Shown here: piece by piece, positions 6,656-54,482 of the stretch | How positions within the stretch are numbered: position 1 is the first letter of the stretch | Layout: every line of letters begins with the position of its first letter | Assembly (NCBI GenBank): GCA_946612455.1 | Contig: CAMOER010000008.1 | Coordinates: forward strand, 24,934 to 88,933 | Direction of reading: 5' to 3' | DNA length: 64,000 bases | From: an uncultured Lachnospiraceae bacterium | Lineage (GTDB): Bacteria > Bacillota > Clostridia > Lachnospirales > Lachnospiraceae | Translations under genes and position numbers: made by a program | Notes under the pieces: generated by a model | What the model was told of the DNA's origin: nothing | Databases searched by the model: none | Seen by the model: the letters and a program-made list of their open reading frames with translations, nothing else

Positions 6656-9304
6656 ATGATGACACCGATGATGCAGCATTATCTGGATACGAAAAAAGAG
6701 TATCCGGACTGCATTTTATTCTACAGGCTCGGCGATTTTTATGAAATGTTCTACGAGGACGCCATCACGGTCTCCCGGGAACTTGAACTGACGCTGACGG
6801 GCAAGGACTGCGGCATGCCGGAACGTGCGCCCATGTGCGGCGTGCCGCATCATGCAGCCGACGTCTATATCAGCAAGCTCGTGGAACGGGGATTTAAAGT
6901 CGCCATTGCAGAGCAGACGGAGGATCCGAAGCAGGCAAAGGGACTGGTACGCCGGGAAGTCGTCCGGATCGTGACGCCCGGGACGAACATGGCCCCGCAG
7001 GCGCTGGAAGAAGGCAGAAACAATTACATCATGTGCATTGCTGCGCAGGACCGGGAATTCGGACTTTCCGCAGCAGATGTTTCTACGGGCGAATTTTTTG
7101 CGACGGAAGTGACCTCTGTCGGAGAACTGTTCGATGAGATCTATAAATTCATGCCGTCCGAGATCATCGTAAATGAAGCCTTTATGATCCGCGGCGTGGA
7201 TACAGATGAACTGAAGAACCGCTATCATATGATGATCTCCGTGCTGCCGGCTTCGTATTTTAAGGAAACGGACTGCGTGAAACGGCTCTGTGATCATTTC
7301 GATGTCTATTCCTATGAAAGCCTGGGCTTTAAGGACCGCCACGCGGCAGGTCTTGCTTCCGGCGCTATGCTCATTTATCTGGATGAGACACAGAAGATCG
7401 CGCTCACGCATATTACCGGGGTCAGCCTGTATGACCGTGGGAAATATATGATCATCGATACGTCCACCAGAAGAAATCTGGAACTGACCGAGACGCTGCG
7501 GGAGAAGAAGAAGCACGGGACGCTTCTGTGGGTCCTGGACCGGACGAAGACCGCCATGGGCGCCAGACTCCTGCGTACCATTATCGAACAGCCGCTCCTC
7601 ACAAAGGAGGAGATCATCCGTCGGCAGGATGCGATTCAGGATCTTCTGGACGATCTGATCACCAGAGAGGAGCTGCGGGAATATCTGGCTCCTGTCTATG
7701 ACCTGGAGCGTCTGATGGGAAGGATCACCTTCCATACGGCCGGTCCCAGAGATCTGATCGCTTTTAAGACATCCCTGGAAATGCTGCCGCATATCAGAGG
7801 ACTGCTGCAGGGCTTTGAGAGTGCCCTGCTTACAGAGCTTCATGAGGATATGGATGATCTCACAGATATCTGCGCAATGATCGGCGCAGCGATCAATGAT
7901 GATCCGCCGCTGTCCTCGAAGGAAGGCGGCATTATCAAGGCCGGATATTCCGAAGAAGCCGACCGGCTCCGGGAGGCAAAAACAGAGGGTAACGGCTGGC
8001 TGAAAGAGCTCGAAGAAACAGAAAAAGAGCGCACAGGCATCAAGAACCTGCGTATCAAATACAACAGAGTATTCGGCTATTATCTGGAGGTCACCAACTC
8101 CTTTAAGGATCTGGTACCGGAGGATTATATCCGGAAGCAGACGCTGACGAATGCCGAACGGTACACGACGCCGCGGCTGAAAGAACTTGAGAACGTCATT
8201 CTGGGCGCCGATGAAAAACTGACCGCGTTGGAATATGACATTTTCTGTGAGATCCGGGAGCATATTTCGGGACAAGTCGCACGTGTTCAGAAGACAGCCC
8301 ATGCGGTTGCCATGCTGGATGTGCTGCTGTCGCTGGCGCATGCCGCAGAGCATGAGCATTTCGTGCGGCCGAAGATCAACGACAAAGGAAGCATCAATAT
8401 CATCGGCGGACGTCATCCGGTGGTTGCCAAAATGATGAAGGATGAGCCGTTCGTACCGAACGATACGAAGCTGGATCTGAAGGAGCACAGGATCGCCGTC
8501 ATCACCGGACCGAACATGGCCGGTAAGTCCACGTACATGCGGCAGACAGCGCTGATCGTGCTGATGGCGCAGACCGGATCCTTTGTCCCGGCCGATAAGG
8601 CGGACATCGGGATCAGCGACCGGATCTTCACTCGCGTCGGCGCATCGGACGATCTCGCTTCCGGGCAGAGCACCTTCATGGTGGAAATGACGGAAGTGGC
8701 CAACATCCTGCGGAATGCTACCAGGAATTCCCTTCTGATCCTGGACGAGATCGGCAGGGGCACGAGCACATTTGACGGCCTGGCGATCGCGTGGGCGGTC
8801 GTGGAGCATATCAGTCAGCCGAAGCTGATCGGCGCGAAAACGCTTTTTGCGACGCATTATCATGAACTGACGGAGCTGGAAGGTCATCTTCCCGGCGTGA
8901 ACAACTACTGCATTGCCGTCAAGGAGCAGGGAGATACGATCGTTTTCCTGCGTAAGATCGTTGCCGGCGGCGCGGACAAGAGCTACGGTATCCAGGTCGC
9001 AAAGCTGGCCGGCGTTCCCGGACAGGTGATCGAGAGAGCGAAGGAACTCGTCGCGGAACTGTCCGATGCGGATATCTCGGCACGTGCTAGAGAAGTCGCA
9101 GAGTCGGGGGTCACCGACAGGAAAAAACACGTTCCGAAACCGGATTACGTCGACAGGAACCAGCTTTCGCTGTTCGATACGAACAGTGACGACGAGATCC
9201 TGAAGGAGATCGACAGCCTGGAGCTTTCCACGATGACACCGATCGATGCACTGAATACACTGTATTCGCTGCAGGCTAAAAGAAAGAACCGCTGGCAGGG
9301 ATAA
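6656..9304 (+). CDS. mutS: DNA mismatch repair protein MutS
   Basis: N-terminal TPMMQHYL..FYRLGDFYE mismatch-binding motif. Walker A GPNMAGKST. DEIGRGTST motif. Confidence 0.95.
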   Translation: MMTPMMQHYLDTKKEYPDCILFYRLGDFYEMFYEDAITVSRELELTLTGKDCGMPERAPMCGVPHHAADVYISKLVERGFKVAIAEQTEDPKQAKGLVRREVVRIVTPGTNMAPQALEEGRNNYIMCIAAQDREFGLSAADVSTGEFFATEVTSVGELFDEIYKFMPSEIIVNEAFMIRGVDTDELKNRYHMMISVLPASYFKETDCVKRLCDHFDVYSYESLGFKDRHAAGLASGAMLIYLDETQKIALTHITGVSLYDRGKYMIIDTSTRRNLELTETLREKKKHGTLLWVLDRTKTAMGARLLRTIIEQPLLTKEEIIRRQDAIQDLLDDLITREELREYLAPVYDLERLMGRITFHTAGPRDLIAFKTSLEMLPHIRGLLQGFESALLTELHEDMDDLTDICAMIGAAINDDPPLSSKEGGIIKAGYSEEADRLREAKTEGNGWLKELEETEKERTGIKNLRIKYNRVFGYYLEVTNSFKDLVPEDYIRKQTLTNAERYTTPRLKELENVILGADEKLTALEYDIFCEIREHISGQVARVQKTAHAVAMLDVLLSLAHAAEHEHFVRPKINDKGSINIIGGRHPVVAKMMKDEPFVPNDTKLDLKEHRIAVITGPNMAGKSTYMRQTALIVLMAQTGSFVPADKADIGISDRIFTRVGASDDLASGQSTFMVEMTEVANILRNATRNSLLILDEIGRGTSTFDGLAIAWAVVEHISQPKLIGAKTLFATHYHELTELEGHLPGVNNYCIAVKEQGDTIVFLRKIVAGGADKSYGIQVAKLAGVPGQVIERAKELVAELSDADISARAREVAESGVTDRKKHVPKPDYVDRNQLSLFDTNSDDEILKEIDSLELSTMTPIDALNTLYSLQAKRKNRWQG

Positions 9305-22670: not shown

Positions 22671-22697
22671 TTGAACAGGCAGAATGTGAGGTCACGG

Positions 22698-23195
22698 ATG
22701 AAAAAACATGCTTCCTATATACTGTTATCAGCGCTCTGCTCGGTCCTGCTGATCCTGGCTGACCGTGTTACGAAAGCAGCAGCCGTCCGGCATCTGAAGG
22801 ACCAGGAGCCGATCCGGCTGATCCGCGGCGTACTTGAATTAAAATATCTGGAGAATCACGGCGCCGCCTTCGGCATGCTGCAGAATAAGCAGACGCTGTT
22901 CTTTATTCTTACAGTTGCTGTTCTCGGACTGATCCTGTTCTTTTTCCTGTTCCGGATCCCGCAGGGACGCAAATACATGCCGCTGAATATTATGTGCATT
23001 CTTCTGTTCTCCGGTGCGATCGGCAATTTTATCGACCGGATCACCCAGTCGTATGTGGTTGATTTCATCTATTTTTCTCTGATCGATTTTCCGATCTTTA
23101 ATGTTGCCGACTGTTATGTATCCGTATCCGCAGTTCTGCTGTTCGTACTCATCCTCTTTTTTTATAAAGAAGAGGATCTGAAAGGCATCTTATGA
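22698..23195 (+). CDS. lspA: lipoprotein signal peptidase II
   Basis: 4-TM protein with NxGAAFG and FNVADCYVSV motifs. ATG at 22698 chosen because the TTG at 22671 abuts the sepF terminator. Confidence 0.85.
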   Translation: MKKHASYILLSALCSVLLILADRVTKAAAVRHLKDQEPIRLIRGVLELKYLENHGAAFGMLQNKQTLFFILTVAVLGLILFFFLFRIPQGRKYMPLNIMCILLFSGAIGNFIDRITQSYVVDFIYFSLIDFPIFNVADCYVSVSAVLLFVLILFFYKEEDLKGIL

Positions 23196-24100
23196 GTGAA
23201 GAGATCAGGATCATCGTGGATGATGAGCATACGGGAGAGAGACTGGATCTGTATCTCTCTCATTTTCTGGACGGTTATTCACGCTCCTTCCTGCAGAAAC
23301 GGATCACGGAAGGGAGCGTGCTTTTTAACGGGAAGACCGTGAAGGCAAAGCAGCCGGTCCGTCCGGGGGATGAGATCCTGCTGACGATCCCGGAACCTGC
23401 GCCGGCCACGGCCGTTCCCGAGAATATCCCGCTCGAGATCCTGTATGAAGACGAGGATCTTCTTTTTGTGAACAAACCGAAGGGCATGGTGGTCCATCCG
23501 GCCCCCGGACATGAAACGGGGACGCTTGTGAATGCGCTTGTTTACTATCTGGGTGAAAATCTGTCCTCGATCGGCGGTGTGCTGCGTCCGGGCATTGTCC
23601 ACCGGATCGACATGGATACGAGCGGTGTACTTGTCATTGCGAAGAATGATCAGGCGCACAGGCATGTTGCGGAGCAGCTGGCCGTGCACAGCATAAAGCG
23701 AAGATACCGGGCGATCGTGCACGGAAGGATCGAAGAGGAAGCAGGCACGATTAACAAGCCGATCGGACGGTCCCGGACCAACAGGCTGAAGATGGCCGTA
23801 CAGCCGGACGGGAAACGCGCTGTAACGCATTTTAAGGTGCTGCAGAGGTTCCAGGCGTATACTTATATAGAATGCAGCCTGGAGACCGGCAGAACGCATC
23901 AGATTCGCGTACACATGACATCCGAAGGCCATCCTCTTTTGGGGGATACGGTGTACGGCAACCGGCCGGATAAATTTAAACTGCAGGGACAGACGCTCCA
24001 TGCACTTTCTCTGGGGCTTGTTCATCCGCGGACCGGTGAGTGGATCGAGGTCACTTCAGAGATCCCAGCTTACATGCAGCATCTTTTGGATATCTTATGA
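23192..24100 (+). CDS. rluD: RluA-family 23S rRNA pseudouridine synthase (RluD-like)
   Basis: S4 domain at the N-terminus. Catalytic HRIDMDTSG motif. Classic lspA-rluD pairing. Confidence 0.9.
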   Translation: MSEEIRIIVDDEHTGERLDLYLSHFLDGYSRSFLQKRITEGSVLFNGKTVKAKQPVRPGDEILLTIPEPAPATAVPENIPLEILYEDEDLLFVNKPKGMVVHPAPGHETGTLVNALVYYLGENLSSIGGVLRPGIVHRIDMDTSGVLVIAKNDQAHRHVAEQLAVHSIKRRYRAIVHGRIEEEAGTINKPIGRSRTNRLKMAVQPDGKRAVTHFKVLQRFQAYTYIECSLETGRTHQIRVHMTSEGHPLLGDTVYGNRPDKFKLQGQTLHALSLGLVHPRTGEWIEVTSEIPAYMQHLLDIL

Positions 24101-24223
24101 ACGTAATACGCAAAAAATATACTCAATTGTGTAAATTATTCTTGCTTTTTCCATTGAAACGTCGTATATTATAGAAAAGTAACAATTTGAGCAATTTCAT
24201 GACATTCAAGGAAGGGAACTCTT

Positions 24224-24862
24224 ATGAATAAAATCGTAACGATCGGCAGACAGTTCGGCAGCGGCGGCTATACTATCGCAAAGATGCTTGCGGAACGTCT
24301 TAATGTCACCTGCTATGACAAGGAACTCCTGAGCCTGGCGGCAAAGGAGAGCGGACTGGCGGCGGAGGTCGTCGAGACCCATGACGAGAAGCCCATCAAC
24401 AGCTTCTTTTATTCATTGGTTGTGGACAATTCCGTGAGCCGCGGGATCAACAATTATGTCGACCTGCCGCTGAACCAGAGGGTATTCCTGGCGCAGTTTG
24501 AGACGATCCAGAATATCGCGAAGAGGGAATCCTGTGTCATCGTGGGACGCTGTGCCGACTATGCGCTGGCGGATTTCCCGGATGTCACGAACATTTTCAT
24601 CTGTGCGAATCTGGCGGACAGAGTGAAGCGGATCTCCAAAAGATTCGATGTGTCTGCGGACAAGGCCATGGAAATGATCACCAAGAACGACAAGAAGAGA
24701 TCCAGCTATTACAATTATTATTCGGACAAGAAATGGGGCGTTGCGAACACCTATGATCTGACGCTGAACAGTTCCTGCCTTTCGCCTGAAAGCGCTGTTG
24801 AACTGATCCTCGGTTTCCTGAAAGCGAGAGATGAAAAACGCGACAGCATTCTGCATGTCTGA
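24224..24862 (+). CDS. cytidylate kinase-like family protein
   Basis: N-terminal IGRQFGSGG P-loop variant and about 210 aa, typical of the cytidylate-kinase-like (AAA_33-type) family. Confidence 0.7.
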   Translation: MNKIVTIGRQFGSGGYTIAKMLAERLNVTCYDKELLSLAAKESGLAAEVVETHDEKPINSFFYSLVVDNSVSRGINNYVDLPLNQRVFLAQFETIQNIAKRESCVIVGRCADYALADFPDVTNIFICANLADRVKRISKRFDVSADKAMEMITKNDKKRSSYYNYYSDKKWGVANTYDLTLNSSCLSPESAVELILGFLKARDEKRDSILHV

Positions 24863-24875
24863 TGTAAAAACCTGT

Positions 24876-24919
24876 ATTAAAATACACGCCTGCCGGCTGC
24901 GGCAGGCGTGTATTTTAAT
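24876..24919 (+). terminator. long perfect hairpin / terminator
   Basis: 20-bp stem ATTAAAATACACGCCTGCCG / CGGCAGGCGTGTATTTTAAT with a GCTG loop. Confidence 0.7.
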
Positions 24920-24927
24920 ACGAAAAT

Positions 24928-24941
24928 CGAAAATATGTTCG
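24928..24941. promoter_or_regulatory. LexA (Cheo) box 1 upstream of the LysM gene
   Basis: CGAAAATATGTTCG has 1 mismatch to the Firmicute consensus CGAAC-N4-GTTCG. Confidence 0.7.
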
Positions 24942-24950
24942 AAAATGCGG

Positions 24951-24979
24951 TTGACAAACGTATGTTCGGGTGCTATATT
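24951..24979 (+). promoter_or_regulatory. sigma-A promoter of the LysM (YneA-like) gene
   Basis: TTGACA, 17 nt, TATATT, with a TGc extended -10. Confidence 0.65.
24955..24968. promoter_or_regulatory. LexA (Cheo) box 2, between -35 and -10
   Basis: CAAACGTATGTTCG has 1 mismatch to CGAAC-N4-GTTCG and overlaps the promoter spacer. Confidence 0.65.
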
Positions 24980-24994
24980 GTAATCACAGCACAC

Positions 24995-25008
24995 AGAACA
25001 AATGTTCG
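24995..25008. promoter_or_regulatory. LexA (Cheo) box 3, in the 5' leader
   Basis: AGAACAAATGTTCG has 1 mismatch and lies just upstream of the GGAGG RBS. Confidence 0.65.
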
Positions 25009-25017
25009 GAGGAGAAT

Positions 25018-25317
25018 ATGAACAGAAAAGCATTTCGAATGATTTCCGTTTTCATACTGCTGGCCGTGATCCTGATCGCCAGCTTCGGCGCACGTACAAT
25101 GGCTACTTCCAGAAAAGATACACTGCCGCGGGCCTATTCATCTGTGCAGATCCTGCCGGGAGACACGCTCTGGTCCATTTCCGAGACGTACTGCGGGAGC
25201 AGTGATCCGCAGGATATCCGGGAATATGTCCGTGATCTGAAGGAGATGAACCATATCCTGAATGATACATCGCTCCGTGCAGGCGCCTATCTTATGATCT
25301 ATACAGTCAAAAGATAA
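25018..25317 (+). CDS. LysM-domain membrane protein, YneA-like candidate SOS cell-division inhibitor
   Basis: 99 aa. N-terminal TM (ISVFILLAVILIASF) followed by a LysM-like segment (VQILPGDTLWSISETY...LRAGAYLMIY). Preceded by three Cheo boxes, the same architecture as B. subtilis YneA. Confidence 0.6.
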   Translation: MNRKAFRMISVFILLAVILIASFGARTMATSRKDTLPRAYSSVQILPGDTLWSISETYCGSSDPQDIREYVRDLKEMNHILNDTSLRAGAYLMIYTVKR

Positions 25318-25358
25318 GCCGGTGATAGAAGAGCAGTACACTAATATACGCTTACAGC

Positions 25359-25417
25359 AGAGGACTCCGGGTACTCCCACCTCTTATCCAATGCCCGGAG
25401 AACTCTGTTGTTTTTTA
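25359..25417 (+). terminator. probable terminator (imperfect hairpin plus T-tract)
   Basis: AGAGGACTCCGGG ... CCCGGAGAACTCT followed by GTTGTTTTTTA. The loop is long, so confidence is moderate. Confidence 0.4.
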
Positions 25418-25433
25418 TTGCCGACGTTTAACA

Positions 25434-26489
25434 TCAGTCCTTCTTTTCTCTGAGCTGGACTTTATTCCTGGCACTGCGGCGTCGTTCGTCATCAAGCGCT
25501 GCATAGTGCTTCCGCGTGGTATTGACATCCGAGTGCCCGAGCACATCCGCGACCAGATAGATGTCGCCGGTTTCACGGTACAGATTCGTACCGTAGGTGC
25601 TGCGAAGCTTATGCGGAGTAATATTCTTTAATGTCGTGACGGTCCTGGCATATTTTCTGACCAGATTCTCCACGCTGCGGACGCTCATCCTTTTGCGCTG
25701 CAGAGAAAGGAAAAATGCATCTTCATGTCCTTTTACGGGTATGATATGCTTCCGTTCATTCTCATAGACACGAAGCGCTTCCTCGACTTCATCGCCGAAA
25801 TAAACGATGACTTCCTTGCCGCCTTTCCGGTGAATATGGATGCCGCCGTTCTTGAAATCGACATCATCCAGATTGAGCCCGATACATTCCGAAACTCGGA
25901 TGCCGGTACCGAGCATGAGCGTCATCAGGGCCAGGTCCCGGATCTTTGTTTTTTCATGAAAAGCCTGCTGTTTTTCCGTCAGTTTTTCACCGGATTCGAC
26001 CTGGTCCAGAAGATCGGCGACTTCATCGATATCCAGACGGACGATTTCCTTTTCGTGCAGTTTCGGTAGCGAGATCAGGGCGGTCGGGTTGGTAAAGATC
26101 ATTTCCTTTTTAAAGAAATAATTATAGAAAGTCTTTAAGGAAGACAATTTCCGCATGATGCCGCGTTCCTGGTTGATCCTTTCCGTATCCTCATTGGAAT
26201 AATAACGAAGATGATCCATGTATTTTTCAAGATCAAGGGCTTTGATCTTATCCAGATCGGAAACGACGTACGAAGTGATTTCACGATCGGTAAAATCCGG
26301 ATGCGACTGATGCAGGTAATCAAAGAAGACATGCAGATCGTAGGCGTAGGCGATTTTCGTGCGGGAGGAAGTCGTCTGGTCGATGCCGCGCATGAAAGTC
26401 GCGACGAAGTCCGGCAGGCCGGCAATCAGCTCGCGGAGTTTGATGGTGTTGGCTTTATCAAGCTGTTCGTGGTATGAACGGGAAGGCAT
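25434..26489 (-). CDS. tyrosine site-specific recombinase, XerC/XerD-like
   Basis: 351 aa. SAM-like N-domain. Catalytic-domain motifs LGTGIRVSE (Arg), HKLRST (His-x-x-Arg), LGHSDVNTTRKHY (His ... Tyr). Confidence 0.85.
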   Translation of the reverse strand: MPSRSYHEQLDKANTIKLRELIAGLPDFVATFMRGIDQTTSSRTKIAYAYDLHVFFDYLHQSHPDFTDREITSYVVSDLDKIKALDLEKYMDHLRYYSNEDTERINQERGIMRKLSSLKTFYNYFFKKEMIFTNPTALISLPKLHEKEIVRLDIDEVADLLDQVESGEKLTEKQQAFHEKTKIRDLALMTLMLGTGIRVSECIGLNLDDVDFKNGGIHIHRKGGKEVIVYFGDEVEEALRVYENERKHIIPVKGHEDAFFLSLQRKRMSVRSVENLVRKYARTVTTLKNITPHKLRSTYGTNLYRETGDIYLVADVLGHSDVNTTRKHYAALDDERRRSARNKVQLREKKD

Positions 26490-26529
26490 GAATACAGTCC
26501 TTTCTAAGTAAATGTTAAAAAAATCACAA

Positions 26530-26560
26530 TTATGTAGGATAATTAAATAATCTTACATAA
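26530..26560. promoter_or_regulatory. AT-rich palindrome just upstream of the recombinase start codon (operator-like)
   Basis: TTATGTAGGAT-AATTAAATA-ATCTTACATAA. The 11-nt arms match at 10/11. It lies 41-71 nt upstream of the recombinase ATG. Confidence 0.35.
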
Positions 26561-26585
26561 TCTGATGGAATGAATCCGGCGACAA

Positions 26586-26757
26586 CCGCTGCAGACAGTC
26601 ACCGGCTGAAACTGTGTGTGAAGAGCGACAGGATCGGGCGAAACCGCCGACTGGAAGCCAACACGCTTTATTCGTTGGCTGGAAGGAGTGCGTATGTTTC
26701 GTCCCGGATCCGAAGCAATCTGAGGACCCTGTTTCAGGCGGTGACTGTCTGCAGCGG
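26586..26757. repeat. 27-bp near-perfect inverted repeat pair flanking a 118-bp core (inverton-like, or the closing stem of a structured RNA)
   Basis: IRL 26586-26612 is CCGCTGCAGACAGTCACCGGCTGAAAC. IRR 26731-26757 is GTTTCAGGCGGTGACTGTCTGCAGCGG. They are complementary at 26/27. Outer complementary 8-mers TGAATCCG (26571) and CGGATTCA (26778) extend the pairing. Confidence 0.85.
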
Positions 26758-26933
26758 CGTCACTCGAATGCATAATTCGGATTCAGTAAAACCTAAGACT
26801 TTCAGCGGTGGATTCTTCAGGCTGCAGGCAGCCTTCAGAATGACAATTGATATCAAACGCTGATCACAGTTAAAATGTAATGAATCCGTTGAGGCGAACA
26901 GGTAAAACATGTAAGCCTTGAATAAAAATAATT

Positions 26934-27040
26934 GCACCCAAACTTTACGAATCAGTTGCGGGCGGACTCGAAAAGCAAGTCAATCAACCGAAGTATTATC
27001 AGCACCCAAACTTTAACGAATCAGTTGCGGGCGGACTCGA
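26934..27040 (+). repeat. two direct repeats (38 and 39 nt) separated by a 30-nt unique spacer
   Basis: GCACCCAAACTTT(A)ACGAATCAGTTGCGGGCGGACTCGA occurs at 26934-26971 and 27002-27040, identical except for a 1-nt indel. The spacer is AAAGCAAGTCAATCAACCGAAGTATTATCA. Confidence 0.85.
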
Positions 27041-27071
27041 CAAGTAATACTTCATTAAATCATTGATTTTT

Positions 27072-27123
27072 CGCCCCCAACTATTCGTTAAAGTTTTCTT
27101 TTGCGAATAGTTGGGTTTATTTG
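27072..27123 (+). terminator. inverted partial copy of the repeat forming a 12-bp (extendable to about 18-bp) hairpin plus T-tract
   Basis: CGCCCCCAACTATTCGTTAAAGTTT resembles the reverse complement of the repeat core. CCCAACTATTCG (27076-27087) pairs with CGAATAGTTGGG (27104-27115) and is followed by TTTATTT. Confidence 0.55.
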
Positions 27124-27124
27124 G

Positions 27125-27153
27125 ATCGTACCACTCCATCGGATAAATGTCAA
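27125..27153 (-). promoter_or_regulatory. candidate sigma-A promoter firing toward the repeat locus and recombinase
   Basis: The minus strand reads TTGACA, 17 nt, TACGAT. It would give a leader of about 630 nt ahead of the recombinase ATG. Confidence 0.4.
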
Positions 27154-27183
27154 CCGTTAACTCCTCCGAAGCATCTTTCTCCC

Positions 27184-27216
27184 ACAAAAAACAGGGATAA
27201 ACCCGTTTATCCCTGT
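27184..27216 (-). terminator. rho-independent terminator of the AIM24-family gene
   Basis: The minus strand has ACAGGGATAAA-CGGG-TTTATCCCTGT followed by TTTTTTG. Confidence 0.75.
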
Positions 27217-27245
27217 CAAACCATTCTATACAGTTTTTCTCAGCC

Positions 27246-27914
27246 TCAGCTGCTTCCCTTCGGAATATACGGAATGATCGCACCAGCCACGCTGCTGATC
27301 GGCATTGTCTGCAGCAGCACCTTGCCGGGACCGGTCAGTACGGTATTAAACAGACCTTCGCCGCCGAACAATTTATTCTTCAGTCCCGGAACAGTTTGAA
27401 TATCCATGCTGACACTTTCTTCAAAGCCGGCCACATTTCCCGTGTCCACGATCAGGCTTTCCCCGGACCGCAGATCATATTCCACACATTCGCCGTCAAT
27501 CTCGACAAAAGCGATTCCGTGTCCGGAAAGCTTCTGCATGATAAAGCCTTCACCGCCGAACAGCCCGACCGTTCCTTTCTTGCGGAAATGGACGCTCAGT
27601 TTGACGGATGACTCGGATGCCAGAAATGCGGATTTCTGGAAGATCCAGCTGCCGGAGGACACATCGATCGGAAGGATCTTCCCGGGAAAGCTGGATCCGA
27701 ATGCGATCATGCCGGAACCGCCTTTCGCGGTATAGATATTCTGGAAAATACTCTCTCCGGAGAACATTCTGCCGAATCCTCCCGTACCGGATGTCTGCAT
27801 TTCCATATTCGGAGACATCCAGACCATCGAGCCTTTCTCAGTGATCATCGCTTCATTCGGCTGCAGGCTGCATTCCACGACAGGGAAAGATCCGCCTATG
27901 ATCTCATATTGCAT
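27246..27914 (-). CDS. TIGR00266 / AIM24 (DUF124) family protein
   Basis: 222 aa with the MQYEIIGGSFPVVECSL..GEAMITEKGSMVWM N-terminus and a beta-rich body typical of the AIM24 family. Confidence 0.8.
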   Translation of the reverse strand: MQYEIIGGSFPVVECSLQPNEAMITEKGSMVWMSPNMEMQTSGTGGFGRMFSGESIFQNIYTAKGGSGMIAFGSSFPGKILPIDVSSGSWIFQKSAFLASESSVKLSVHFRKKGTVGLFGGEGFIMQKLSGHGIAFVEIDGECVEYDLRSGESLIVDTGNVAGFEESVSMDIQTVPGLKNKLFGGEGLFNTVLTGPGKVLLQTMPISSVAGAIIPYIPKGSS

Positions 27915-27994
27915 TGCATACTCTCCTTTCAGTCAAAATACAATTTATATATTATAAATAGCACAATTCAATTCATAAATCAATGATTTTATTT

Positions 27995-28008
27995 CGAACA
28001 TTCGTTTG
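27995..28008. promoter_or_regulatory. LexA (Cheo) box overlapping the lexA -35 region
   Basis: CGAACATTCGTTTG has 1 mismatch to CGAAC-N4-GTTCG. A weaker second site, AGAACATACATTTG, lies at 28042-28055. Confidence 0.65.
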
Positions 28009-28034
28009 CATTTTGCCAGGATCCGTGCTACAAT
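28006..28034 (+). promoter_or_regulatory. lexA promoter
   Basis: TTGCAT, 17 nt, TACAAT. Confidence 0.55.
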
Positions 28035-28087
28035 CTCTAACAGAACATACATTTGGGTATGCGTACTATTTCCCGGAGGTCGATCGC

Positions 28088-28720
28088 ATGGCTGGCAATG
28101 ACAATCTTACCAAAAAGCAGGAACAGATCCTTGAATTCATCAGAGACCGTATTATGAAGAAAGGCTATCCGCCGGCTGTCAGAGAGATCTGTGAGGCCGT
28201 TGGCCTGAAATCCACCTCGAGTGTCCATGCCCATCTCGAAAGCCTGGAAAAGAAAGGCTTCATCCGTCGTGATCCAACGAAACCCCGTGCCATTGAGATC
28301 GTAGACGATGATTACGGCATTTATCACGGTGAGATGACCCGGATCCCGATCATCGGTCAGGTAGCCGCCGGTCAGCCCATCCTGGCGGAGGAAAATATCT
28401 CCGGTTACTATCCCTTCCCCGCGGATCAGCTGCCGAACAATGAACTGTTCATGCTCTCCGTAAAGGGCGACAGCATGGTCAATATCGGTATTCTCGACGG
28501 CGATTATGTTCTTGTCGAACAGCAGCAGACAGCGAGCAACGGCGAAGTCGTGGTTGCGCTGGTCGATGATTCCGCGACCGTCAAGCGCTTTTATAAGGAG
28601 AAGGATCATATCCGTCTGCAGCCGGAAAATGATCTCATGGATCCGATCATTGTTCCGGACTGTCAGGTGCTCGGCAGTGTGTTCGGCGTACTTCGTCTGA
28701 TGAAGAACAGAAAAATGTAA
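28088..28720 (+). CDS. lexA: SOS transcriptional repressor LexA
   Basis: ATG at 28088 after a GGAGG RBS. wHTH N-domain ([44 protein letters not shown]). S24 peptidase domain with GDSM (Ser) and VKR (Lys). Confidence 0.95.
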
Positions 28721-36501: not shown

Positions 36502-36527
36502 TGTATGATCTCCTTTGTTTTAAGATA

Positions 36528-36683
36528 AGACGTCGGAAGAGCCTCTGTTACAGTGTTGATTCTGCTTTTTGCTCTCTTCCTGTCGGCCCGTCCGCTGCAG
36601 AATTTTGCAGTTCTGACCGTGGCAGCATCCGCCGAATCTTTCGATGACTGCCATACCTCGTCAACCTTGCGGTCCCGGCGCTA
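36528..36683 (-). ncRNA. glmS ribozyme: glmS ribozyme (GlcN6P-activated self-cleaving riboswitch)
   Basis: The minus strand reads A/GCGCCGGGACCGCAAGGUUGACGAGGUAUGGCAGUCAUCGAAAGAUUCGGCGGAUGCUGCCACGG...GGCUCUUCC. It matches the conserved blocks of the B. subtilis ribozyme as I recall them (AGCGCC, GUUGACGAGG, AUCGAA, UUCGGCGGAUGC, 3' UCUUCC). The predicted cleavage site is 5' of the G at 36681. Confidence 0.88.
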
Positions 36684-36764
36684 ACCTGTTTCCTGTTTAC
36701 CTCCGTGAAGAAACGGGTTTTACATATATAGAGTCCGTATGTAATAACACAGACCTAGCTAATA

Positions 36765-54220: not shown

Positions 54221-54294
54221 TGGGACCGATGGGGCTCGAACCCATGACCTCTCGCGTGTGAGGCGAACGCTCATCCCAGCTGAGCTACGATCCC
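54221..54294 (-). tRNA. tRNA-Val (anticodon CAC)
   Basis: Hand-folded cloverleaf: acceptor GGGATCG/CGGTCCC, D arm GCTC..GAGC, anticodon stem TTCGC/GCGAG with loop CTCACAC, T arm ATGGG-TTCGAGC-CCCAT. CCA is not encoded. Confidence 0.9.
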
Positions 54295-54394: not shown

Positions 54395-54482
54395 CGGAGA
54401 GTGTGGGATTCGAACCCACGTGCCGGGAAACCGACAACCGCATTTCGAGTGCGGCTCGTTATGACCACTTCGATAACTCTCC
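54395..54482 (-). tRNA. tRNA-Ser (anticodon CGA), class II with a long variable arm
   Basis: Acceptor GGAGAGT/ACTCTCC, anticodon stem CCGCA/TGCGG with loop CTCGAAA, long variable arm, T arm GTGGG-TTCGAAT-CCCAC, discriminator G. Confidence 0.9.

Follow-up and report, generated by a model that had tools for sequence, protein, structure and literature searches.

What does a repeat-dense stretch of some 750 bp do beside a tyrosine recombinase gene when it encodes no protein of its own? The window analysed here, 64,000 nucleotides of contig CAMOER010000008.1 from an uncultured Lachnospiraceae bacterium, raises this question at positions 26490-27245, the gap between the gene for a Xer-family recombinase and an AIM24 gene. 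A preliminary description of the sequence had found the gap free of genes, and we agree: it holds only overlapping open reading frames (ORFs) of 44-97 aa, none of them credible in the ORF list or by Pfam, and blastx returned nothing. The same description proposed that the gap houses a recombinase-coupled RNA or DNA device beyond ordinary promoter and terminator needs. A DNA device is what the comparison of related genomes points to, in the form of a conserved 34-bp site beside the recombinase. We consider it probable that this site is the functional core of the gap and the target of the adjacent recombinase, the two forming a single-recombinase Xer/dif-type module at the replication terminus. 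Its two parts are as follows.

25434-26489, minus strand: gene for the Xer-family tyrosine recombinase, 351 aa (Pfam Phage_integrase PF00589, 124.5 bits)

27079-27112: window copy of the 34-bp site, a candidate dif; on the plus strand, TT-type arm AACTATTCGTTAAA at 27079-27092, centre GTTTTC at 27093-27098, CA-type arm TTTTGCGAATAGTT at 27099-27112

Across 80 orthologous Lachnospiraceae loci, taken from one genome per species, the sole piece of the gap that recurs is window 27078-27116. This is the hairpin that had been described as an inverted partial repeat copy with a terminator-like fold, and it is the only widely conserved repeat.

27076-27093 and 27098-27115: the two 18-nt arms of this hairpin, an inverted partial repeat copy

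Beyond the closest relatives conservation is limited to 34 bp, and the idea that the 750 bp form one organised unit finds no support. The aligned element reads AACTATTCGCRAAA-N6-TTTAACGAATAGTT, two 14-bp inverted arms around a 6-bp centre. Scored with a matrix built from 29 orthologous sites, the window copy reaches 59.5 bits and is the single copy in the 64 kb. Of the 80 loci scanned with this matrix, 46 have exactly one site, which lies upstream of the recombinase at a distance of 12-2802 nt; none of these 46 has a second copy or a copy downstream. The site points one way relative to the recombinase gene in 30 loci and the other way in 16. Its arms are invariant and its centre variable across 44 genomes, and the difference between one arm and the other (CGCRAAA vs CGTTAAA) is itself conserved. 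The whole 34 bp are identical between the window and two close relatives, L081 and L141.

Examined as a hairpin in the same 44 sequences, the site has seven of 14 pairs that never vary and two positions that are mismatched in 43 and 40 sequences, and its pairing does not exceed that of column shuffles (92 of 500 attain the observed percentage). The bases flanking the 34 bp are not conserved, and this includes any T-run. Invariant arms, a conserved asymmetry between them, a free centre and indifference to orientation together argue that the pattern is that of a tyrosine-recombinase core site and not that of an RNA stem or a terminator. Alignment of homologues, which the preliminary description had proposed as a way to tell a DNA site from an RNA, returned the strict arm identity of the former and not the covariation of the latter.

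The gap has nevertheless features that would suit an RNA, above all a predicted promoter, which we find where it had been described.

27153-27125, minus strand: sigma-70-type promoter, TTGACA-17-TACGAT (consensus scan, 10/12 matches plus a TG extension)

Transcription from this promoter would start a few bases ahead of the 34-bp site and run toward the recombinase. It would cover the whole region, whose folds are predicted to be very stable. On these grounds a structured RNA controlling or guiding the recombinase is conceivable, be it a long 5' leader, a small RNA or a relative of the xerDC motif; the preliminary description places this motif, likewise, upstream of Xer-like genes in Clostridia, and the term "xerDC motif" was not found in the literature searched. 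We hold such an RNA to be highly improbable. Rfam 15, searched with all models including any for xerDC, ROOL, raiA and HEARO, gave nothing on the region at gathering thresholds, and at E <= 10 it gave only spurious matches of miRNA hairpins to the palindromes, with no real family among them. The long palindrome is missing in a relative with an 89% identical recombinase, and it folds equally on both strands. The part conserved past near relatives is the 34 bp alone, whose two conserved mismatches, shuffle-level pairing, invariant arms and occurrence in both orientations speak against an RNA cofactor or regulator.

The position of the site also invites a regulatory reading, in which the palindrome is an operator or a terminator/attenuator hairpin of the operon formed by a ttcA-like gene and the recombinase, bound by a regulator, or by the recombinase purely for autoregulation. 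The site always lies 5' of that operon, in the window it stands immediately downstream of a good promoter, and TTTATTT follows the hairpin on the plus strand. Against this, phage genomes, inovirus junctions and a megaplasmid terminus carry the same 34 bp without the operon, as described below; both orientations and distances from 12 to 2802 nt are tolerated; and neither the flanks nor any T-run in them are conserved. A purely regulatory site is therefore, in our estimation, very unlikely. Autoregulation is possible as a secondary role of a recombination site.

The recombinase itself has the properties expected of a Xer protein and fits none of the named orthologue groups, as far as its sequence can tell. 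Its catalytic residues (R198, K222, H293, R296, H319 and Y329) are complete and invariant in 25 orthologues. The best NCBIfam match is XerS (NF003462) at 189.4 bits, where the equivalog cut-off is 267; XerC, XerA and XerD come next, and the protein stays under every Xer equivalog cut-off. XerD and XerA are its nearest solved structures, and the match to the XerH structure (PDB 5jjv, E = 1.7e-9) is weaker than either. Its gene belongs to the syntenic core of Lachnospiraceae, with 60-93% identity between genera. Close homologues were found in only two of 50,697 phage records, at ~60% identity and both in unannotated metagenome-derived entries, which argues that the recombinase is not a common phage integrase. 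Several large plasmids of Clostridium, Bacillus and Butyrivibrio encode more distant homologues (32-37% identity) close to their midpoint (records H15-H26, such as NC_001988.2:84229-85218, and C. botulinum plasmids at ~70 kb of 140 kb), a placement that hints at Xer-like modules carried at plasmid termini.

A site for resolving chromosome dimers should lie at the terminus of replication, and the position of the 34-bp site agrees with this. The cumulative GC skew of the window peaks at 24-26 kb, being positive before and negative after; long non-overlapping ORFs use the plus strand as far as 25.3 kb and, with few exceptions, the minus strand from 25.4 kb. Since the skew maximum and the switch of gene strand coincide at ~25-26 kb, the window straddles the replication terminus, and the 34-bp site, at 27.1 kb, is less than 2 kb from the switch. 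Of 55 related loci, 47 show a fall from positive to negative skew across the module (Wilcoxon p = 4e-8). Three complete chromosome records have the module near the middle of their length (L066 at 50.1%, L063 at 54.8% and L142 at 50.0%; the origins in these records were not located). Searches of the window for canonical dif, as in B. subtilis and E. coli, or for difSL gave no match above shuffle level, the best difSL match agreeing at 20 of 31 positions.

The same association with a terminus recurs on a second replicon. A BLAST search of plasmids with the 34-bp site returned one record, NZ_CP135163.1, the 243-kb plasmid of Roseburia sp. 831b. Its sole copy of the site, at 128460-128493, lies at a switch from positive to negative skew where plus- and minus-strand genes converge. 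The rep and par genes are at 103-108 kb, at the opposite switch, where the skew goes from -0.2 to +0.2. No homologue of the window recombinase was found near the megaplasmid site. Skew and gene orientation divide this plasmid into replication arms of ~25 kb and 217 kb, and the switch coincides exactly with the site. Ahead of the site stand two partial-arm repeats (L135:4920-5000); an unrelated integrase gene and a MarR-like gene follow it.

Mobile elements share the site as well. It occurs exactly in 51 IMG/VR viral contigs, most of them without a related recombinase in the DNA examined around it. Nineteen of the 51 are related tailed phages of ~35-64 kb that encode terminase and MazG (among L085-L131). 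Their copies are intergenic (for example L131:7114-7147) and have no related recombinase within ~5 kb; these phages may integrate by means of the host enzyme, or may use it for dimer resolution. Five further contigs of ~7-8 kb that abut the site (L095, L109, L110, L114 and L103) are inoviruses with a Zot (pI) gene. None of their ORFs of at least 150 aa contains an integrase domain, and a PHROGs search of the inovirus ORFs gave no matches. Two of these contigs, L095 and L109, begin 1 nt before the site. Inovirus-like genes also adjoin the recombinase-linked site in L097, L098, L123 and L026.

One of these loci, L098, preserves what appears to be a recombination product. The full site is accompanied by a second copy 6.2 kb away (2347-2380 and 8580-8621). 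This copy matches it exactly over an 8-nt flank, one arm and the 6-bp centre, and diverges directly after the centre. Such a hybrid junction is the outcome expected of strand exchange within the centre. A recombinase-less element at a site present in full and hybrid copies is also the mark of an attachment site for integrative mobile elements exploiting Xer (IMEX), and IMEX that use Xer/dif are typified by filamentous phages which lack an integrase and insert at the terminus site (PMC5666396; PMC9765430). As a separate observation, the 8-nt flank ACACCTCC, outside the CG-type arm and beside a gene that starts right at the site, is common to L097, L098 and L110, which suggests tandem or successive integrated elements.

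A published experiment bears on the same junction. Burckhardt et al. reported secretion of Enterocloster inoviruses both in vitro and in vivo, and quantified their circularised genomes by quantitative PCR (PMC10061712); that paper mentions flanking direct repeats, and its text names neither dif, Xer nor a recombinase. The published primers match L095 perfectly at 7601-7620 and 65-89. From these positions it follows that the circular-junction amplicon contains the 34-bp site.

Does the site then serve mobile elements only? It could be an attachment site and nothing else, with the recombinase a resident or domesticated integrase and a canonical XerCD/dif system elsewhere in the genome handling dimers. 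Inoviruses and tailed phages do carry or abut the site, the same genomes may encode a canonical XerCD pair, and the recombinase falls short of every Xer equivalog cut-off. The recombinase, however, belongs to the syntenic core of the family and not to a variable island; most genomes have the module at the skew switch, and the megaplasmid too has the site at its skew switch; the 64-kb terminus window contains no canonical dif; and the known integrase-less filamentous phages target dif (PMC5666396; PMC9765430). We judge a role in attachment alone to be unlikely.

A single-recombinase terminus module accommodates both groups of observations. Three of the features that define a Xer/dif module are found together here: a full catalytic set, a non-coding site with inverted arms, and a location at the skew switch, in single copy in the window and in the megaplasmid. 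The role of the site is most likely the unlinking of chromosome dimers. That the adjacent recombinase is the enzyme, that dimer resolution is its function and that FtsK would be involved in any way, we infer from sequence. Binding and strand exchange by the recombinase at the site are suggested indirectly by the linkage of gene and site, the hybrid copy in L098 and the junction amplicon. Protomers of the recombinase would bind both arms of each sister copy, two sites would synapse, and strands would be exchanged within the 6-bp centre, so that a chromosome dimer is resolved to monomers when the cell divides. Which strands are exchanged first would be set by the conserved asymmetry of the arms (CGCRAAA vs CGTTAAA). 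Integrase-less inoviruses would integrate and excise through the same site and enzyme, as IMEX elements do, and the copies in tailed phages and on the megaplasmid would act in trans.

Several observations weigh against this interpretation. No such site is present in 34 of the 80 loci, in the DNA examined around the recombinase. Twelve of these 34 hold a different, non-palindromic conserved element, ATTACAATAATGTTAA-N4-TGTTAAAANTGTGTCA, at the equivalent position (L020, L022, L024, L027, L028, L033, L037, L045, L046, L052, L058 and L061; for example L020:2002-2037). It has a fixed orientation and lies 125-1300 nt upstream of the recombinase, and its right part is similar to the XerD arm of dif in its canonical form. 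This element may be another type of site, or a promoter or operator. A de novo search found no palindrome common to the 34 site-less loci. The 14-bp arms exceed the 11 bp of classical dif. On the megaplasmid, an unrelated and divergent tyrosine recombinase is encoded 560 nt from the site and could be its enzyme there. In one complete genome record, L143, the locus is found 8% of the way along (the origin was not located there). A search for polar motifs resembling the FtsK-orienting polar sequences (KOPS) recovered general purine skew only; GAAGAAG, for instance, is distributed 24:9 between the strands of the window and 71:18 in the megaplasmid, and is not specific. Finally, canonical XerC and XerD with a dif elsewhere in the same genomes may be doing the housekeeping job.

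It is tempting to speculate further, and the following proposal is offered tentatively, as one that we would not yet back over its denial. Lachnospiraceae may resolve dimers of both chromosome and megaplasmid by an undescribed single-recombinase Xer system that replaces canonical XerCD/dif; the site would be a common entry point for inoviruses and tailed phages, and the half-site arrays described below would be working accessory sites, for autoregulation or as a topological filter, and not scars. No description of a Xer/dif system in Lachnospiraceae was found in the literature searched, and under the names searched no entry for Lachnospiraceae appears in the supplement of Kono et al. 2011.

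The proposed module would take its place among the known Xer/dif-type systems, for which reviews give only XerS, XerH, XerA and XerL as unconventional members (PMC5357621; PMC9765430). XerS/difSL of Streptococcus and Lactococcus (PMC1914069, PMC2965235, PMC5357621) likewise pairs a single recombinase of ~350 aa with an adjacent terminus site in one module. The inner arms are similar in sequence, TTCGCGAAA and TTTAACGAA here as against TTTCCGAAAA and TTTTCTTGAAA in difSL, the two arms of each site are asymmetric in both systems, and XerS is the top NCBIfam model for the window recombinase, though at 189 bits against a cut-off of 267. The two systems differ in the site, difSL having 31 bp with an 11-bp centre and the present site 34 bp with a variable 6-bp centre and 14-bp arms, and in the setting, which here is a Clostridia host (Lachnospiraceae) usually with a ttcA-like gene between site and recombinase. 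We rejected an assignment as XerS equivalog with difSL: the protein scores 189.4 against 267 bits, and the site, with its 6-bp centre, has no difSL match above shuffles.

XerCD/dif with its IMEX (CTXphi, VGJphi, TLCphi and XacF1; PMC5666396, PMC6744903) offers the closest parallel for the mobile elements, in that integrase-less filamentous phages use the terminus site, prophages are bordered by hybrid sites in which one arm is good and the other degenerate (as in L098), and secondary replicons hold their own terminus copy (as the megaplasmid does). It differs in having two recombinases where there is apparently one here, in a 28-bp dif consensus to which our site is unrelated, and in that here tailed phages carry copies too. 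XerL/dif of the Legionellales, found by way of the LME-1 attachment site (PMC9765430), shares a conserved, near-palindromic, non-coding, terminus-proximal site of ~30 bp that a mobile element uses, long and nearly uninterrupted inverted arms, and the same line of inference to an unconventional single-recombinase dimer resolution; Legionella xerL, however, lies >400 kb from dif, whereas the present gene adjoins the site, and the Legionella system was tested genetically. XerH/difH of Helicobacter and Campylobacter (PMC3325230, PMC5241119) resembles it in a single recombinase of ~360 aa encoded near the site, and differs in the sequence of that site and in the weak relationship of XerH to the window recombinase.

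Lachnospiraceae are among the most abundant bacterial families of the gut. If confirmed, the module would add a further unconventional Xer/dif lineage, beside XerS, XerH, XerA and XerL, in a dominant commensal family of the gut. It would account for the integration and excision of the integrase-less inoviruses that Enterocloster secretes (PMC10061712), and it would provide a precise marker of the replication terminus for Lachnospiraceae genomes and metagenome-assembled genomes. A natural, conserved, single-copy landing site with its cognate enzyme could moreover serve genetic tools in organisms that are hard to engineer.

What, then, is the rest of the gap? The common gene order of the family runs lspA, rluD, a cytidylate-kinase-like gene, the site, a ttcA-like PP-loop gene, the recombinase, a LysM gene on the opposite strand, lexA and nadD. 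Compared with this order (window 22671-28720 vs L001-L080), the window has the block from site to LysM inverted, lacks the ttcA-like gene and has AIM24 between the site and lexA. Several other genomes are rearranged differently around the same point. The promoter at 27153 would drive the recombinase. It would be needed in this locus since the ttcA-like gene usually found between site and recombinase is missing. L141 retains this promoter and L081 its -35 element. A decayed ttcA-like gene was considered as the origin of the gap and rejected, since a blastx comparison with the gene that relatives have at this position found no remnant.

Next to the site, on the side of the recombinase, lie repeated half-sites.

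27002-27048, minus strand: half-site repeat unit B; TT-type arm with a 1-nt insertion at 27012-27026, minus strand AACTGATTCGTTAAA

26934-26978, minus strand: half-site repeat unit A; arm at 26944-26957

26862-26903, minus strand: degenerate third unit; holds the second AATGAATCCG of the preliminary description and aligns with an intact third unit in L141

26937 and 27006: starts of two 42-nt direct repeat copies, spaced 69 nt apart

26565 and 26875: direct repeat ATGxAATGAATCCG

The last two rows recover, at slightly adjusted positions, what had been reported as a repeat-spacer-repeat unit and as a 10-nt direct repeat at 26569 and 26879. Each unit is 69 bp long and carries a TT-type arm with a one-base insertion. 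Copy number differs between the window, L141 and L081, which share the same arrangement. In L141 (92% DNA identity) the ~230-nt and the AT-rich palindrome of the window are both present, with three half-site units. In L081, whose recombinase is 89% identical, the gap is 469 nt and contains the -35 element, the identical site, a small hairpin and 3.5 units. Extra TT-type half-sites beside the main site recur in the unrelated lineages L026, L030, L044, L059, L072 and L083. Because the units vary in number, they look like side products of recombination, or of mobile elements coming and going, at the site; they may have an accessory or autoregulatory role. In mechanistic terms, the array of 69-bp units would consist of scars of recombination at the site or of accessory binding sites.

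Inverted half-sites within ~70-170 bp of the main site, and an orientation of that site that differs between lineages (30 vs 16), are also what might be expected of an invertible phase-variation switch worked by the recombinase, one of the functions first proposed. We found no evidence of such a switch and consider it scarcely credible. No promoter or gene is bounded by full inverted sites, the extra copies being degenerate half-sites with an indel; the three closest relatives have the same orientation, and no alternative assemblies were seen. Two other candidates for the repeats were set aside. A mini-array resembling clustered regularly interspaced short palindromic repeats (CRISPR), with an anti-repeat, was rejected, the repeats being half-copies of the palindrome arm; and one repeat resembles the 3' end of a transfer RNA (tRNA; TCGAGTCC...), yet by Rfam there is no tRNA here.

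The remaining elements of the gap are these.

26529-26544 and 26546-26561: AT-rich palindrome, 40-70 nt ahead of the recombinase start codon

26565-26790: palindrome of ~230 nt over its whole length, with the following repeat as its core

26586-26617 and 26726-26757: long inverted repeat, 32-nt arms with 91% complementarity, 108 nt apart

26812-26841: small hairpin with 14-bp arms, kept in the close relatives L081, L082 and L141

27190-27217, minus strand: intrinsic terminator of the AIM24 gene, outside the device

The AT-rich palindrome had been noticed before, at the recombinase 5' end, and its extent is 26529-26561. The pair of inverted repeats is likewise real, its dimensions (32 nt, 108 nt apart) replacing the 27 bp around 118 bp given earlier. 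On either strand the ~230-nt palindrome is predicted to fold into one long hairpin, far more stable than shuffled sequence (z = -7.5 to -8.2). Both palindromes are absent from L081 and L082, and appear to be recent insertions specific to the lineage. As an explanation of the larger one, a dispersed miniature inverted-repeat transposable element was rejected: the window holds no second copy, and the only match in the metagenome collection is the orthologous locus. The notion of a relic integration site came close for part of the locus.

The genes around the module include the following.

27246-27914, minus strand: AIM24 gene, bounding the gap on the far side from the recombinase

27983-28720: lexA, an SOS neighbour

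The SOS neighbourhood that had been described is borne out by LexA boxes, three ahead of the LysM (YneA-like) gene and one at lexA; a box scan found none within 26490-27245. The three boxes, at 24928, 24955 and 24995, overlap a TTGACA...TATATT promoter before the LysM/YneA-like gene (window 24928-25020), whose start is probably the ATG at 25018 rather than the GTG at 24970. Elsewhere the window has ordinary features, among them a glmS ribozyme (36525-36693, minus strand) and two tRNA genes (54221-54294 and 54395-54482, both minus strand).

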